Position numbers and translations under genes: made by a program. A stretch of 32,000 nt of DNA from Caedibacter taeniospiralis (GTDB lineage Bacteria; Pseudomonadota; Gammaproteobacteria; Francisellales; Francisellaceae). How positions within the stretch are numbered: position 1 is the first letter of the stretch; each line of letters begins with the position of its first letter. Shown one piece after another: positions 15,116 through 20,163 of the stretch. The DNA lies in assembly GCF_002803295.2 (NCBI RefSeq), contig NZ_PGGB02000013.1:1-32000 (forward strand), written 5' to 3'. The notes beneath the pieces were generated by a model. That model saw nothing but the letters and a program-made list of their open reading frames with translations, did not search any database and was not told where the DNA came from.

Positions 15116-15853
15116 ATGTTACATTGTGCTTTTTCTGGGGAATTATTGGGATGCCTTGTTCTGATATTATTGGGTGGCGGGGTGGTTGCTGGTGTTTTAC
15201 TCAAACAGTCAAAAGCAGAAAATAGCGGCTGGATGGTTATTACCGCGGGTTGGGGATTTGCAGTGATGATGGCAGTGTTTGTGGCGCAAGCGGCAGGATC
15301 GCCACAAGCGGATATTAATCCTGCGGTAACCCTTGAGAAATACCTGCTAGGTGATATTTATTCATCTTTTCTGCAAGTGATTTGGTTATGGCTGGCTCAG
15401 GTTATTGGCTGCTTTTTAGGGGCTGTGCTGGTCTGGCTTGCCTACTATACTCATTGGCAATATACCGAAAACGCCCATTTTAAATTAATGATTTTTTCCA
15501 CTTATCCAGCTATGCGCCATAAGGGCAGCAATTTTGTCACTGAACTTATTGCCACGACTTTGCTTATTGTGTTTGTTGGAGCATTGATCAGTTATGGCAA
15601 CCAATTACCATTTGCTAATGGTTCATTACCTTATGTCTTTGGTTTTGCCGTTTGGGGAATTGGTTTATCTTTAGGTGGTCCCACGGGTTACGCGATTAAT
15701 CCCGCGCGTGATTTAGGACCCCGAATTGCCCATGCCCTATTGCCAATTAAAGGCAAAGGTTCAAGTGACTGAAGTTACGCATGGGTCCCGATATTGGCAC
15801 CCTTAGCAGGAGCAGTGATTGGGTTTGTATTAATTCGGCTTTTTATGTTTTAA
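15116..15853 (+). pseudogene. glpF: MIP-family aquaglyceroporin (GlpF-like) interrupted by an in-frame TGA at 15770-15772
   Basis: Both NPA boxes are present (NPAVTL, NPARDLGPR). The track ORF stops at ...KGKGSSD*. The same frame continues SYAWVPILAPLAGAVIGFVLIRLFMF* to the TAA at 15851-15853, which encodes the missing last TM helix. Confidence 0.7.
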
Positions 15854-16400
15854 AGCAAAGTAGGGGCGAAAAATGTTTCGCTTTTTATTAAATCTTCTTC
15901 CAGTGCGAGCAATGCCTTCTCAAAATTAATGACAAGAATTCCATCACTAAGATATCGATCTTCCTTGCCCATATAGAGAATCGTGCACTTAGCCATAGGG
16001 TAATCCTGTTTAAAATGCTTAAGACCTGTTGGCATTCTGCAGAAATGACGGGGTCAGGGCTGATTTTCGCACACTACCCCCAACAATATAATAATTGGAA
16101 AGTTTAAGTCGATCGATGAATTCAATCAAAACATCAGTAAAACCCTTTATGCTGTAGTACCAAGCATATTGATGGCAATCAACGTAGTTTGATAAACCAT
16201 GTCCAGGAAAATCGAGGCAAACCAAGTTGTACTGCTTTTAATAAATCGCAAAGTGGTTCATATGATGTTGTCGATGAATGAAAAGCATGTAATAACAGCA
16301 AAGTTGTATTTTTCCCAGATATGGCATTTGAGTAGTGTAGATTTCCAAATTTAAAATTCATAATATCTGACTGCATACTGATTAATTTTTTTACTGTCAT
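15850..16400 (-). pseudogene. Alpha/beta-hydrolase pseudogene (at least 2 frameshifts plus an internal deletion)
   Basis: Three consecutive minus-strand ORFs in three frames read as pieces of one protein: ...TTLLLLHAFHSSTTSYEPLCDLLK / (Q)YNLVCLDFPGHGLS...YYIVGGS / C-terminal piece. The first shift maps to the A-run around 16236-16240. The total span of 183 codons is too short for the fold. Confidence 0.75.
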
Positions 16401-17584
16401 ATGACCGCTCCCGCGATTAATGCCGATAAAAAGCTGACCATAGTGGCACCATATACTAAGCGCCAGCCATGGCGCGATACAAATTTAGCGCGTTCGCTAT
16501 TTAGTGCAGCTACTGCGCCAACGACGATACCAATTGAGCTAAAGTTGGCAAAAGAAACCAGAAAGATCGAGATAATCGCAACGCTATGTGAAGAGAATTG
16601 CGTTAAGTGTTCTTTTAAGTAAAGCATTGCCACAAACTCATTTGAGACGAGCTTAGTTGCTATAATCCCACCTGCTTGTACCATTTCATTAGCGGAGATT
16701 CCAAGTAGCCAGGCTAAGGGTGAGAAGATCAATCCTAAAAGTGACTGAAAGGTGAGACCAAAAATTCCGTTAAAAATCCCATTTAGCATGCTGATTAAGG
16801 CAATGAAGCCGATAAGCATGGCGCCAACAATAATCGCTACTTTAAAGCCGTCTAACGTATATTCACTTAGCACTTCAAAAAACGTTTGCTTCTTACCAGA
16901 ATGCAAACTCATATCTTCAAAACTTTGTTCTTGGCTTTGCTCATAGGGATTTAAAATATGCAATACAATAAACGTGCTGAGCATATTAAGGATGAGTGCG
17001 GCGATGATATATTTTGAGTCCAATATTTGCATATAAGAACCAACAATTCCCAGTGAAACGGTTGACATGGCAGTTGCCGCCATCGTGTACATTCGGCGTT
17101 CCGAGATTTGCGAGAGAATGTTTTTATAGGCAATAAAGTTCTCAGATTGCCCTAGAATCAAGGAGCTTAACGCATTAAAAGACTCAAGCTTACCCATACC
17201 GTTAATTTTTGATAAAATCCAGCCTCCACCGCGAATAATAAGTGGCAGAATTTTAAGATATTGCAAAATCCCGATTAATGCCGAAACCAGAACGATTGGC
17301 ATAAGCACATTGAAGAAAAAGACAAAATTATCAGGCACGACTGAGCCAAAGACAAATTTAGTTCCTTCCATGGCGTATTGCATGATATATTCAAAGCCCA
17401 GAGAGATAACATGAATACTGTTGGCGCCTGCTTCTGACTTTAAGAGAAAATAAGCAACAACAATTTCAATAATAATCAGTTGGATAACAAACCTGAATTT
17501 GATCTCTTTACGACTCATGCTGGTAAAATACAGCGCGGTGACCAGAATAATAAACGCAAGCAAAAAGTGTAGCAGTTTGGACAT
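16397..17584 (-). CDS. nupC: NupC/CNT-family nucleoside:H+ symporter
   Basis: 395 aa, polytopic. The N-terminus MSKLLHFLLAFIILVTALYFTSMSRKEIKFRFVIQLIIIEIVVAYFLL...EGTKFVFG parallels E. coli NupC. Confidence 0.9.
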   Translation of the reverse strand: MSKLLHFLLAFIILVTALYFTSMSRKEIKFRFVIQLIIIEIVVAYFLLKSEAGANSIHVISLGFEYIMQYAMEGTKFVFGSVVPDNFVFFFNVLMPIVLVSALIGILQYLKILPLIIRGGGWILSKINGMGKLESFNALSSLILGQSENFIAYKNILSQISERRMYTMAATAMSTVSLGIVGSYMQILDSKYIIAALILNMLSTFIVLHILNPYEQSQEQSFEDMSLHSGKKQTFFEVLSEYTLDGFKVAIIVGAMLIGFIALISMLNGIFNGIFGLTFQSLLGLIFSPLAWLLGISANEMVQAGGIIATKLVSNEFVAMLYLKEHLTQFSSHSVAIISIFLVSFANFSSIGIVVGAVAALNSERAKFVSRHGWRLVYGATMVSFLSALIAGAVI

Positions 17585-17812: not shown

Positions 17813-18561
17813 GGTGGGGGGTAGATTACCCCTTCATTTAATAAATTCCACATTAAAGTCCGATTGCTTGCCATTACTTTTGCTACTTCCTTCTTATCCT
17901 TGATAAGCATTACTTGTCCAAGCGCCTGCTTGAGCGTTTGAGGTGTCTGTTTTAAATGCTGTAAAAATCTTGCGGTTAGCGCATTTAATTCAAGGGATTG
18001 AACTGCGTCTTTGCTATTGCGATAAATGCAAAAAAAAGTGGGCTTTTGATCCCCTATCTCAGGCAAAAATGTCGCGCTAATTTGATGCACAGGATAATGA
18101 TAAGCGACAATTTCAGCGACATCAGACACAGAATATATCGTGTGATTATCATCAATTTCTCGAGTCATTAAAGTCGATGGCGCCTCGCCTTCAGCCATTT
18201 CAATGACCATTTCCATCCACTCATAATGCGCAAGCTCCATTAAGAAAGGGTAATCTGTTTGCCACAGCATTTTATGGTGCAGTAAGAATTCAACAAAGCT
18301 TTGAGGAATTTCATAGAAGAAGGGGGATTGGCATGGATGCTCAGCATAGAATTGTGTGACTATTTCGTGCCACTTTTTTGAGGGTAGTGCATTTATACAG
18401 ATTGGAAAACAATTACTCAGCAATTCATTTATTCCGTTAAAAAAAGATTGCTCATACACTTGCATCCTTTGAAGCGGAATACCTTCAGGCAGAGGCACTC
18501 TATCTTTGTGACGTATGCGTCTGGCAAAGCTTTTTTGGGTGGCTTGAAATTCAAATGGCAT
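17761..18561 (-). CDS. DUF2063-family RiPP maturation partner (HvfC/BufC-like)
   Basis: 266 aa. FQATQKSFARRIR...QRMQVYEQSFFNGINELLSNCFPICINAL fits the DUF2063 N-domain pattern. It overlaps the upstream DUF692 gene by 11 nt. Confidence 0.8.
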   Translation of the reverse strand: MPFEFQATQKSFARRIRHKDRVPLPEGIPLQRMQVYEQSFFNGINELLSNCFPICINALPSKKWHEIVTQFYAEHPCQSPFFYEIPQSFVEFLLHHKMLWQTDYPFLMELAHYEWMEMVIEMAEGEAPSTLMTREIDDNHTIYSVSDVAEIVAYHYPVHQISATFLPEIGDQKPTFFCIYRNSKDAVQSLELNALTARFLQHLKQTPQTLKQALGQVMLIKDKKEVAKVMASNRTLMWNLLNEGVIYPPPALLGKATSPTSLTTPL

Positions 18562-19396
18562 AAGCTTTCCCCTCTATAAAACGCTGTTGTAATTGCTGAA
18601 GTTGCTTTGTCTCTTGTAGCAAAACCTCTAATTGAGGGACTTCATTATCGCGCTCAAGCAAAGTAGGCAAGAGCCCATGCTTTTGATAGGTGTAATTGAG
18701 CAGTTGCCAAACAGGCTCGATTACCTCATCACCATGGGTATCAATAATCAAATCGGGAGCCTTTTGCCAATGCCCTGCGATGTGGATATAGGCTATTTTA
18801 TTCGTTGGCATTTGATCGATAAATCGGTAAGCGTCATAGCCATGATTAACGCTATTGACGTACACATTATTCACATCGAGTAACAACAAACAATCCCCTT
18901 CACGAAGAATTGCGTTGATAAAGTCCGCCTCTGACATATCTCCCTTGGGTAAGGCGTAATAAGAGATGTTTTCCAAAGCAATGCGCTGCTGTAACGCTTC
19001 TTGGACCTGTTTAATCCGCTTGACCACATAACTCACCGCTTCTTCTGTGAAAGGAATAGGCATCAAATCATATAGCTGCCCCTGGCTGTCACTGCAAAAA
19101 CTCAAGTGTTCACTGTAAAGTTGAATCTTGTGGTTGTGGAAAAATCTTTTTAAAGATTCAATGAAACTTATGTCCAGTGGAACCAATCCACCAATAGACA
19201 ACGACAAACCATGGCAGATCATGGGATATTGCTCGCTATAGGCACGGAGTATTTTTTGGCGCTTGCCACCAATTCCCAGCCAGTTTTCAGGAACAATCTC
19301 AAGAAAATCAACAGGATGTGGCTTCATTGCTAATAATGGACCCATAAACTGGCGTCTTAAACCAAGACCGCATGTGCCAATATTGTCTAGTGACAT
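18551..19396 (-). CDS. DUF692 multinuclear non-haem iron oxidase (MNIO; MbnB/BufB/HvfB-like RiPP maturase)
   Basis: GLGLRRQF...VDFLEIVPENW...ICHGLSLSIGG...LYSEHLSF...LMPIPFTEEA...IALENISYY...LLLDVNNVYVNSVNHGYDA...IHIAGH...IIDTHGDEV...PTLLERDNEVP is the canonical DUF692 (TIM-barrel) motif string. I prefer the ATG at 19396 over the GTG at 19417. Confidence 0.9.
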   Translation of the reverse strand: MSLDNIGTCGLGLRRQFMGPLLAMKPHPVDFLEIVPENWLGIGGKRQKILRAYSEQYPMICHGLSLSIGGLVPLDISFIESLKRFFHNHKIQLYSEHLSFCSDSQGQLYDLMPIPFTEEAVSYVVKRIKQVQEALQQRIALENISYYALPKGDMSEADFINAILREGDCLLLLDVNNVYVNSVNHGYDAYRFIDQMPTNKIAYIHIAGHWQKAPDLIIDTHGDEVIEPVWQLLNYTYQKHGLLPTLLERDNEVPQLEVLLQETKQLQQLQQRFIEGKAYAI

Positions 19397-19416
19397 AGTA
19401 ACTTCCCTGCAACACA

Positions 19417-19746
19417 CTATTGGTCAGTATTGCTCGCACCGCAAGAACCGTCACTATCTTTCATGTTTGAGCCGCAAGCACCATCACTGTCTTTCATGTT
19501 GGCGCCACAAGATCTGTCTGCTTTATTACCCATTGAATCAGCACTTGCCCCATCCATGTTTTTCTGTTGCGTGCCCATTTTGTTTGCGCCGCATTTTCCA
19601 GCACCACATTGACCATCTGCTTTTTGCATGAATTGTCCTGAGCCCATTTGCGTAGCCTGCATAGTATTGGAGTCAGCATAACTTGCGCTCATTGCAAGAC
19701 TCAAAGCTAACCCTGTTCCCATAGCGATTAATGATTTTTTATCCAT
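19417..19746 (-). CDS. Secreted Cys/Met-rich low-complexity precursor peptide (HvfA-like MNIO substrate candidate)
   Basis: The ATG at 19746 has AGGAG 8 nt upstream. Sec-type signal MDKKSLIAMGTGLALSLAMSASYA, then DSNTMQATQMGSGQFMQKADGQCGAGKCGANKMGTQQKNMDGASADSMGNKADRSCGANMKDSDGACGSNMKDSDGSCGASNTDQ. All 5 Cys sit in a C-G-(A/S) context. It lies 20 nt upstream of the MNIO gene. Confidence 0.75.
   Translation of the reverse strand: MDKKSLIAMGTGLALSLAMSASYADSNTMQATQMGSGQFMQKADGQCGAGKCGANKMGTQQKNMDGASADSMGNKADRSCGANMKDSDGACGSNMKDSDGSCGASNTDQ
19439..19504. repeat. Imperfect 33-bp tandem duplication inside the precursor gene
   Basis: CCGCAAGAACCGTCACTATCTTTCATGTTTGAG versus CCGCAAGCACCATCACTGTCTTTCATGTTGGCG (28/33 identical by hand). 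These encode the CG(A/S)NMKDSDG(A/S) units. A third, degraded unit follows. Confidence 0.8.
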
Positions 19747-19924
19747 TTTATTTTCTCCTTTAATTACAGTTATGTAAAGAATCACACCAATGATGCAAGT
19801 GAAGGCGCACGCTTAGAGTGATCATTCCGAGCATTAGGCTATTATGATATTTTTTGATTTGCAATGGAAATACAAATTTATTTCAAGGTGATTGGTGAAC
19901 TATGGGATAAAGATGAAAGGACGA

Positions 19925-20131
19925 GGCGAAACTTTATAGTGCCACCCATAACTGCCGCTGCTTACATGGCTCTTGAACCCTCAAGAACCAAGTGGGTGCG
20001 CTCGCTGTTTCTTGGGCTTCTCAGTCATGCTGAGCATGCACGCCAAAACAAGTACTACGCTCCCGATATTTATACATCGGCTCAAGAATGTAAAGACTGG
20101 CTAACAGCACAGGCGACACTAAACTTCGACT
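19925..20131 (-). ncRNA. ssrS: 6S RNA
   Basis: The minus-strand transcript contains, in E. coli 6S order, GCCAGUC, UGAGCCGAU, GCAUGCUC, GAGAAGCC, CUUGGUUCUUGAGGGUUCAAG and GCGGC. The ends form a long closing stem: 5' CGAAGUUUAGUGUCGCC pairs with 3' GGUGGCAC(UA)U(A)AAGUUUCG. The ends are approximate, within about 10 nt. Confidence 0.8.
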
Positions 20132-20134
20132 TAG

Positions 20135-20163
20135 ATCATAGAAGTATCCGTGCTTGAGTGCAA
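20135..20163 (-). promoter_or_regulatory. Sigma70-type promoter for ssrS
   Basis: On the minus strand: TTGCAC (20163-20158), a 17-nt spacer, then TATGAT (20140-20135). This places the start about 5-8 nt downstream, at the base of the 6S closing stem. Confidence 0.5.

Follow-up and report, generated by a model that had tools for sequence, protein, structure and literature searches.

A probable HvfA-type peptide precursor with single-cysteine repeats in a three-gene hvfABC operon of a Caedibacter taeniospiralis-like genome

The DNA analysed here, referred to throughout as the window, is a stretch of 32,000 nucleotides (contig NZ_PGGB02000013.1, positions 1 to 32,000) from Caedibacter taeniospiralis, an obligate endosymbiont of Paramecium. 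Its minus strand carries a compact three-gene operon, hvfA-hvfB-hvfC, the first gene of which specifies a small precursor peptide, the subject of this report, and the other two a multinuclear non-heme iron-dependent oxidase (MNIO) and its DUF2063 partner. The exact precursor protein is present in the databases as WP_100550503.1 of Caedibacter taeniospiralis (Thiotrichales, Fastidiosibacteraceae), under the NCBI name 'HvfA family oxazolone/thioamide-modified RiPP metallophore', RiPP denoting a ribosomally synthesised and post-translationally modified peptide. The features of the operon and of the precursor are collected in Table 1.

Table 1. Features of the hvfABC operon and of its precursor gene in the window
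Feature	Position	Strand	Evidence or remark
hvfA-like precursor gene	19417..19746	minus	109 codons and TAG stop at 19417-19419; translation
Shine-Dalgarno sequence AAGGAG	19755..19760	minus	8 nt 5' of the hvfA ATG; read from the sequence
Sec-type signal peptide, residues 1-24 (MDKK / SLIAMGTGLALSLAM / SASYA)	19675..19746	minus	n/h/c layout; predicted signal peptidase I site A24/D25
Leader, probable HvfC-recognition segment, residues 25-43 (DSNTMQATQMGSGQFMQKA)	19618..19674	minus	leader alignment
Paired site DGQCGAGKCGANK (Cys47, Cys52)	19579..19617	minus	NF050137 match, residues 44-56
Cys-free, Met-containing linker MGTQQKNMDGASADSMGNK	19522..19578	minus	
Three tandem 11-aa single-Cys units	19420..19521	minus	Tandem Repeats Finder period and codon layout
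Single-Cys unit 1, ADRSCGANMKD	19489-19521	minus	
Single-Cys unit 2, SDGACGSNMKD	19456-19488	minus	
Single-Cys unit 3, SDGSCGASNTDQ	19420-19455	minus	
hvfB, MNIO (DUF692) maturase, 281 aa, ATG at 19396	18551..19396	minus	NF003818, PF05114
hvfC, DUF2063 / RRE-type (NGO1945_C) partner, 266 aa	17761..18561	minus	NF050145, PF09836, PF22106

Translation of the minus strand from 19746 to 19417 gives 109 amino acids, MDKKSLIAMGTGLALSLAMSASYA followed by DSNTMQATQMGSGQFMQKADGQCGAGKCGANKMGTQQKNMDGASADSMGNKADRSCGANMKDSDGACGSNMKDSDGSCGASNTDQ and a stop, which are divided into a 24-residue Sec-type signal and a remainder of 85 residues. A preliminary description of this DNA, made from the sequence alone, had put the mature region after SASYA at about 85 residues, with five Cys each followed by Gly and then Ala or Ser, eight Met and almost no hydrophobic residues. 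The translation bears this out: the remainder is exactly 85 residues long, its five Cys (residues 47, 52, 80, 91 and 102) are all followed by G and then A/S, Met is present eight times, V, L, I, W and Y are absent and F occurs once. The most frequent residues are G (14), D, S and A (10 each), Q (8), N and K (7 each). Since the chance of G-(A/S) after a given Cys is about 0.04 from the remainder's own composition, its presence after 5/5 Cys is no effect of composition; as the repeats are duplications, however, the five sites are not independent events. The core is poor in Lys (9%; mean of the family 23%) and rich in Met (7.5%; mean of the family 3.3%), the Met content lying in the upper quartile and under the family maximum of 14%; with a net charge of -2, the mature peptide is acidic.

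The open reading frame (ORF) looks real, given its Shine-Dalgarno sequence, a next gene beginning 20 nt past its stop and its conservation in other assemblies. That next gene is of the HvfB type, so that the precursor does adjoin an MNIO gene as had been described, and hvfB in turn overlaps hvfC by 11 nt. On the plus strand, a 122-aa ORF (19263-19631) runs across the hvfA/hvfB boundary; having neither a family match nor a Shine-Dalgarno sequence it was rejected as a gene, and most probably it only mirrors this repeat-rich, stop-poor region. A promoter/terminator scan around the operon returned 10 promoter-like sites, not above the expectation from shuffled sequence (7.8 +/- 3.5), and no copper-responsive operator could be assigned in it.

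The product of hvfB was recognised by the HvfB equivalog model NF003818 (409.7 bits, cut-off 360) and by PF05114 (E=1.5e-104), and that of hvfC by the HvfC equivalog NF050145 (232.4 bits, cut-off 142) as well as by PF09836 and PF22106. The motifs RR, HGLS, EHLS, LEN, DVNN, HIAGH, DTHG and ERD of the window HvfB align with FonB, HvfB and NgoB; the Arg15/Arg16 pair of FonB, the catalytic Asp (ERD) and the site-3 residues (N/D/H) of DVNN and DTHG are all kept. The counterparts of the DVNN and DTHG residues, N175, D242 and H244, are essential in Haemophilus influenzae HvfB (bioRxiv 10.64898/2026.07.17.739211).

In the precursor, the signal proposed by the preliminary description shows the n/h/c layout, with a 15-residue h-region (mean Kyte-Doolittle hydropathy 1.72), Ser at -3 and Ala at -1, and in alignment it matches the signals of 40 family precursors in position. 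The 24-aa signal of H. influenzae HvfA is cleaved in E. coli, between residues 24 and 25 by mass spectrometry (PMC11252979). The segment that follows is a diverged form of the family leader motif NPFxMxELxSGYMxA, to which SNTMQATQMGSGQFM aligns with F replaced by M and L by M at two hydrophobic positions, and in which the motif's own Met falls on F or M by register; SYA/D of the window aligns with ANA/A of the family, and ADGQCG with AEGKCG. Three of the eight Met sit in this leader, at family-hydrophobic positions (F/M, L/M and M), and are therefore leader rather than core residues.

The core consists of the Cys47/Cys52 pair, which is the sole canonical HvfA-like KCGxxKCG element of the precursor, the linker and the three single-Cys units. 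That the last three Cys lie in a distinct repeat unit, as earlier described, agrees with Tandem Repeats Finder, which reported a 33-nt period over 19439-19512 (2.2 copies, 82% matches), and with the 11-aa layout of the units. Around the five sites, G at +1 and D at -3 are present in 5/5 and G at -2 in 4/5 (R at Cys80), while the residues at -1 are, in order, Q, K, S, A and S.

Family membership was assessed with profile models and by comparison of loci. The HvfA-family domain model NF050137 ('KCGExKCG_twice') scored the precursor at 24.3 bits, a marginal pass of the cut-off of 19.5, canonical members scoring 40-90 bits, and no Pfam match, DUF2282 included, was obtained on the precursor. A contig scan with the MNIO retrieved 80 loci with HvfB relatives at 54-61% identity; as relatives at up to 61% were all that it gave, Caedibacter not among them, close lineages were collected through exact-protein look-ups. 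Upstream of the MNIO, most of the 80 loci have a precursor with a signal peptide, an A-x-A site, a NPFxMxELxSGYM leader and then EGKCG units, and the window precursor is collinear with about 40 EGKCG-type precursors upstream of HvfB homologues. The window peptide is a divergent representative of the HvfA / Buf_EGKCG-oxazolin / captophorin family, annotated before, which current models only just detect. An exhaustive phmmer search gave only 35 proteins at E<=1e-3, including a clade (P0004-P0006) with a MDKK(S/T)LIA signal as in the window and DGKCGAGKCGANK units, as well as a Halothiobacillus peptide whose repeat is SDSSCGANMKK (4x).

Directly upstream of the HvfB homologue, seven of the loci (L001, L005, L006, L008, L012, L016 and L038; Methylophaga-like and others) have a conserved signal-peptide protein of about 250 aa rather than an EGKCG peptide. 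It carries a single CGCP motif (...ASLLCGCPI...) and could be either an MNIO substrate of another type or simply an unrelated gene nearby.

The preliminary description had further claimed that the precursor possesses a repeat grammar of its own. A profile of 168 single-Cys sites from 96 family precursors has E (79%) or D (18%) at -3, G (82%) at -2, K (67%) or S (18%) at -1 and K (63%) or M (21%, against a background of 3.7% for Met) at +4. All states of D-G-S-C-G-(A/S)-N-M-K are present in this profile, and the unit is thus a mix of minority states without a separate grammar; the claim stands in that there is a separate 11-aa unit, but is overstated in that the unit falls inside the family profile and has close counterparts in the (Q/E)GSCGAS sites of Neisseria NgoA and the SDSSCGANMKK repeats of Halothiobacillus. 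Seen against these sites, the 11-aa unit with its single Cys has drifted, specifically in this lineage, from the (E/D)-G-K-C-G unit, with K to S at -1 and K to M at +4; a minority of family members generally has linkers rich in Met. The notion that Met at +4 replaces the second Cys of a pair was considered and is weak at best: such Met is found at 23% of single sites and also at 13% of sites terminating pairs or runs (p=0.019 by Fisher's test, without correction for relatedness), and Met density within +3..+6 is otherwise similar (0.41 vs 0.36 per site).

The chief value of this precursor lies in a natural series of three close lineages, in which single Ser-Cys sites go together with the maturase. 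Lineage A (the window and P0001) has hvfBC, the Cys pair and three single-Cys repeats. Lineage B (L087/L088; precursors P0002, P0038 and P0041) has hvfBC, with an MNIO 96% identical to that of the window and an intact HvfC, but has lost the pair and possesses four (P0041) or five (P0002 and P0038) repeats. In lineage C (L090; P0043 and its relatives) the locus lacks hvfBC, one Cys of the pair is left as a single DGQCG, and a single DGSCG site is followed by Cys-less remnants. The related lineages have thus conserved the ORF, and where hvfBC is present no repeat has lost its Cys-Gly; in lineage B, each DGSCGxNMKDS unit retains D-G-S-C-G. The earlier remark that the first pair resembles the HvfA EGKCG motif is right insofar as the pair is what matches NF050137, but the pair is not conserved, being lost in the sister lineage. 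DNA alignment of A and B revealed that signal and leader are nearly invariant, that a 15-nt in-frame deletion and a TGT to TAT change remove both Cys of the pair in lineage B, and that lineage B has two extra 33-nt repeats (P0041 one fewer). The copy number of the 11-aa unit changes by 33-nt slippage. All hvfA indels of lineage B relative to the window (15, 6 and 66 nt) are in frame, which, together with the invariant Cys-Gly, argues for selection on the repeats.

The lineage C locus has flanks 94-96% identical to those of lineage B, and about 550 nt replace the distal part of the precursor gene and hvfBC. Its 87-aa peptide has two Cys and then the Cys-less remnants NGGSSSDSDMK and DGPSDS, a Cys loss that fits relaxed selection once the maturase was gone, the absence of hvfBC referring to this locus only. 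By eye, the replacing segment (L090:6073-6622) contains stop-interrupted frames resembling a GNAT acetyltransferase fragment.

These lineages also bear on whether the window gene is in decay, as a remnant left in the reduced genome of an endosymbiont: a low-complexity, fast-drifting ORF which is a functional metallophore no longer. The precursors of A and B are 69% identical as against 96% for their MNIOs, lineage B has lost the pair, hvfBC is missing from the locus in lineage C, synteny breaks immediately upstream, and DoxX and a regulator were not found nearby. Such decay seems quite unlikely, nevertheless, for a locus with three intact ORFs, a strong Shine-Dalgarno sequence, operon spacing and every catalytic or metal motif checked in HvfB, and with nearly invariant signal and leader DNA, exclusively in-frame indels and Cys-Gly retained in each repeat where hvfBC is present.

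The modification itself can be judged from published relatives. H. influenzae HvfA, with three AEGKCGEGKCG motifs, loses 4 Da at each of the six motif Cys and in this modified form binds Cu(I) (PMC11252979); the family modification has since been reassigned from oxazolone/thioamide to 5-thiooxazole (PMC13097082; bioRxiv 10.64898/2026.07.17.739211). The overall interpretation in the preliminary description was largely right, while its chemistry is outdated. FonBC processed DGKCG fully, tolerated A, R and T at -1 and accepted only G or A at +1 (PMC13097082), and in NgoA of Neisseria gonorrhoeae 'All 7 Cys' were modified, including three single (Q/E)GSCGA sites (PMC13097082 Fig. S18). Set beside these data, all five window sites appear to fall within the context that characterised enzymes accept, in which the residue following Cys is small, that at -3 is acidic or neutral, and Pro is absent.

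It is probable, in our estimation, that the window specifies an HvfA-type precursor of an hvfABC RiPP operon with the following course. The peptide would be translated with its Sec signal; in the cytoplasm HvfC would bind the leader (residues ~25-43) and present the core to the diiron MNIO HvfB, which would convert Cys-Gly dyads into 5-thiooxazoles by oxidation, with a loss of 4 Da apiece. The most likely targets would be all five Cys, those of the CGAGKCG pair as well as those of the three single sites D-(G/R)-(S/A)-C-G. Export and cleavage after Ala24 would follow, and the disordered, acidic, Met-rich product would sequester Cu(I) in the periplasm via thiooxazole N/S donors; Met thioethers possibly help as co-ligands, although this is speculative. 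We infer the chemistry of the modification, the choice of Cys, export before or after modification and the binding of copper from the published relatives.

A narrower proposal confines the action of HvfBC to the CGAGKCG pair; the three single-Cys repeats would stay as thiols or disulfides and would make up, with Met, a conventional Cys/Met metal-binding or redox tail. The odd total number of Cys and the restriction of the NF050137 match to the pair would suit it, as would the finding that FonBC modified a two-repeat minimal substrate and not a one-repeat one (PMC13097082). This proposal we regard as unlikely: lineage B, devoid of the pair, keeps its nearly identical MNIO, an intact HvfC and four to five single-Cys repeats with invariant Cys-Gly; the three single sites of NgoA are all modified; and at a Halothiobacillus hvf-type locus the precursor, which adjoins an MNIO and HvfC, contains single sites only (4x SDSSCGANMKK). 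That a lineage with none but single sites retains the maturase speaks for these sites as its substrates, and the three-lineage series as a whole argues that the single D-G-S-C-G sites are selected substrate sites. The lineages amount to a small natural experiment: a pair with three repeats; no pair with four to five; and no maturase at the locus with decayed Cys.

The peptide might instead be a genuine HvfBC product with another role, binding another soft metal (Ag, Au, Hg, Cd or Zn) or acting as a Met/thiol antioxidant in the environment of the Paramecium host. Its low Lys content and net acidity are compatible with this, and the metal specificity of 5-thiooxazole peptides has been left unsettled, clusters being induced by gold, oxidative stress and copper (PMC13097082), but copper is bound by every characterised relative (oxazolin, fontiphorin, gonophorin and the bufferins), and a different role is very improbable.

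Several points weigh against an HvfA-type, copper-sequestering product. The NF050137 match covers model positions 1-13 of 29 (residues 44-56), hence one pair only, and the precursor fails the HvfA equivalog NF050188 (22.2 bits, cut-off 95), on which H. influenzae HvfA itself scores 128 bits. The signal peptide was called by inspection and alignment only, and modification and copper binding of the window peptide are inferred from characterised relatives. As FonBC left a one-repeat substrate unmodified, isolated single sites might be poorer substrates. A Pfam scan of 22 window ORFs gave neither a DoxX gene nor a copper regulator; a DoxX (HvfX) gene in the cluster is a frequent but not obligatory trait of the family. 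The host is a reduced endosymbiont and its relatives have rearranged or lost the locus, which leaves a small chance of decay. Finally, the window HvfB has Asn (...LLERDNEVP) where FonB has Phe250, which follows the catalytic Asp and contacts Lys3/Gly5 of the substrate in the FonB model (PMC13097082). Among the closest 120 MNIO homologues, about 30, a Legionella pneumophila protein included, have N or S at this position and 85 have Phe. Co-variation of this residue with the lost Lys at -1 was rejected: N/S is also found in MNIOs paired with DGKCG precursors (P0051 with P0004), and Phe is retained in the MNIO of Halothiobacillus, whose substrate is of the SSCG type. The residue at this position does not track substrate type, and it is so taken for a clade trait with no substrate adaptation.

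A wider, tentative possibility, which we consider doubtful, is that the window peptide, its pair-less sister (4-5x DGSCGxNMKDS) and the Halothiobacillus peptide constitute an unrecognised 'single-site, Ser-Cys/Met' subclass of captophorins. In it Cu(I) would be bound by one thiooxazole with nearby Met thioethers, or by thiooxazoles of neighbouring repeats, and not by a KCGxGKCG pair, and capacity would be tuned between strains by 33-nt slippage. The family models largely miss the candidates: with NF050137 (cut-off as above) P0041 (18.3 bits) and the Halothiobacillus peptide (13.8 bits) stay below the cut-off and P0002 (19.8 bits), named 'hypothetical protein' in the database, barely reaches it.

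The window precursor leaves the picture of the family unchanged. It is a data point on how far HvfA/captophorin precursors drift while paired with an intact maturase, here from Lys-Cys to Ser-Cys, from Lys to Met and through loss of a Cys pair, and it illustrates that existing hidden Markov models under-call single-site precursors. Retention of the operon in an obligate Paramecium endosymbiont hints at the importance of copper or oxidative stress within the host and accords with the virulence role of HvfA in H. influenzae.

The genes flanking the operon are of a housekeeping nature (a nucleoside transporter, MIP, UPF0149, UbiH-like enzymes and LplA). Synteny with the close lineages breaks just upstream of hvfA, at the boundary of its promoter region near window position 19872 and at about 5836-5900 in L081, L087, L088 and L090. 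Beyond it the window has a 97-aa ORF on the plus strand (19864-20157; no Pfam match) and then UPF0149/UbiH-like genes, whereas MurJ, a LysM protein and a 154-aa ORF occupy this side in lineages B and C. Downstream of hvfC, L087 shows the synteny of the window, with the nucleoside transporter, and L088 has APH and NDK. The upstream breaks and the differing downstream genes therefore place the hvf locus at a rearrangement hotspot. Further along, on the minus strand (window 15850-16400), three consecutive short ORFs (73, 68 and 61 aa) look like pieces of one alpha/beta-hydrolase (LLLLHAFHSS..., DFPGHGLS..., GGSV) and are probably a frameshifted pseudogene; Pfam gave no match on the three, and lineage B (L087) does not align across 16009-16401.

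Among known systems, HvfA/oxazolin of nontypeable H. influenzae (PMC11252979) is similar in its precursor of about 100 aa, its 24-aa Sec signal, the order precursor-MNIO-DUF2063, the HvfB and HvfC equivalogs, the KCGxxKCG pair and Gly after all Cys. The window peptide differs from it in having one pair as against three AEGKCGEGKCG units, in adding three D-G-S-C-G-x-N-M-K single-Cys units, in lacking the N-terminal disulfide Cys pair and DoxX (HvfX), and in being Lys-poor and acidic. NgoA/gonophorin (PMC13097082) shares with it the mixture of single Ser-Cys sites ((Q/E)GSCGAS x3) and KCGxGKCG pairs, and the last window unit, DGSCGAS, differs from EGSCGAS of NgoA only by D for E. In NgoA, however, the single sites stand before the pairs, not after, and the repeats are of 10 aa with Lys at +4 (CGASK) in place of 11 aa with Met at +4 (CG(A/S)NM); NgoB has Phe after the catalytic Asp where the window has Asn, and the ngo cluster includes DoxX.

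The Buf_EGKCG/oxazolin family (Leprevost et al., PMC12452194), which is that of the Lys-Cys captophorins (Gadgil et al., PMC13097082), has the same Sec signal, NPF..SGYM-like leader, repeated (E/D)-G-x-C-G and MNIO with DUF2063 partner, and about 15-25% of its members have Met-containing linkers (C-G-x-x-M); most of the window sites lack the eponymous Lys-Cys. The bufferins, BufA1 (DUF2282) or BufA2 with BufBC, are likewise Sec-exported, copper-binding thiooxazole RiPPs modified by a related MNIO and a DUF2063 protein. The window MNIO, however, scores 284.5 bits with the BufB equivalog NF050167 (cut-off 310), below its HvfB score, and its precursor has no DUF2282 match and is a low-complexity repeat, not a folded domain. 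With methanobactin (MbnA/MbnBC) the operon shares an MNIO that acts on Cys to give a copper-binding heterocycle; methanobactin differs in its MNIO (the window protein scores 50.5 bits on TIGR04159, MbnB, cut-off 325), in its own leader peptide without a Sec signal, in an oxazolone/thioamide modification and in serving copper acquisition, not sequestration.

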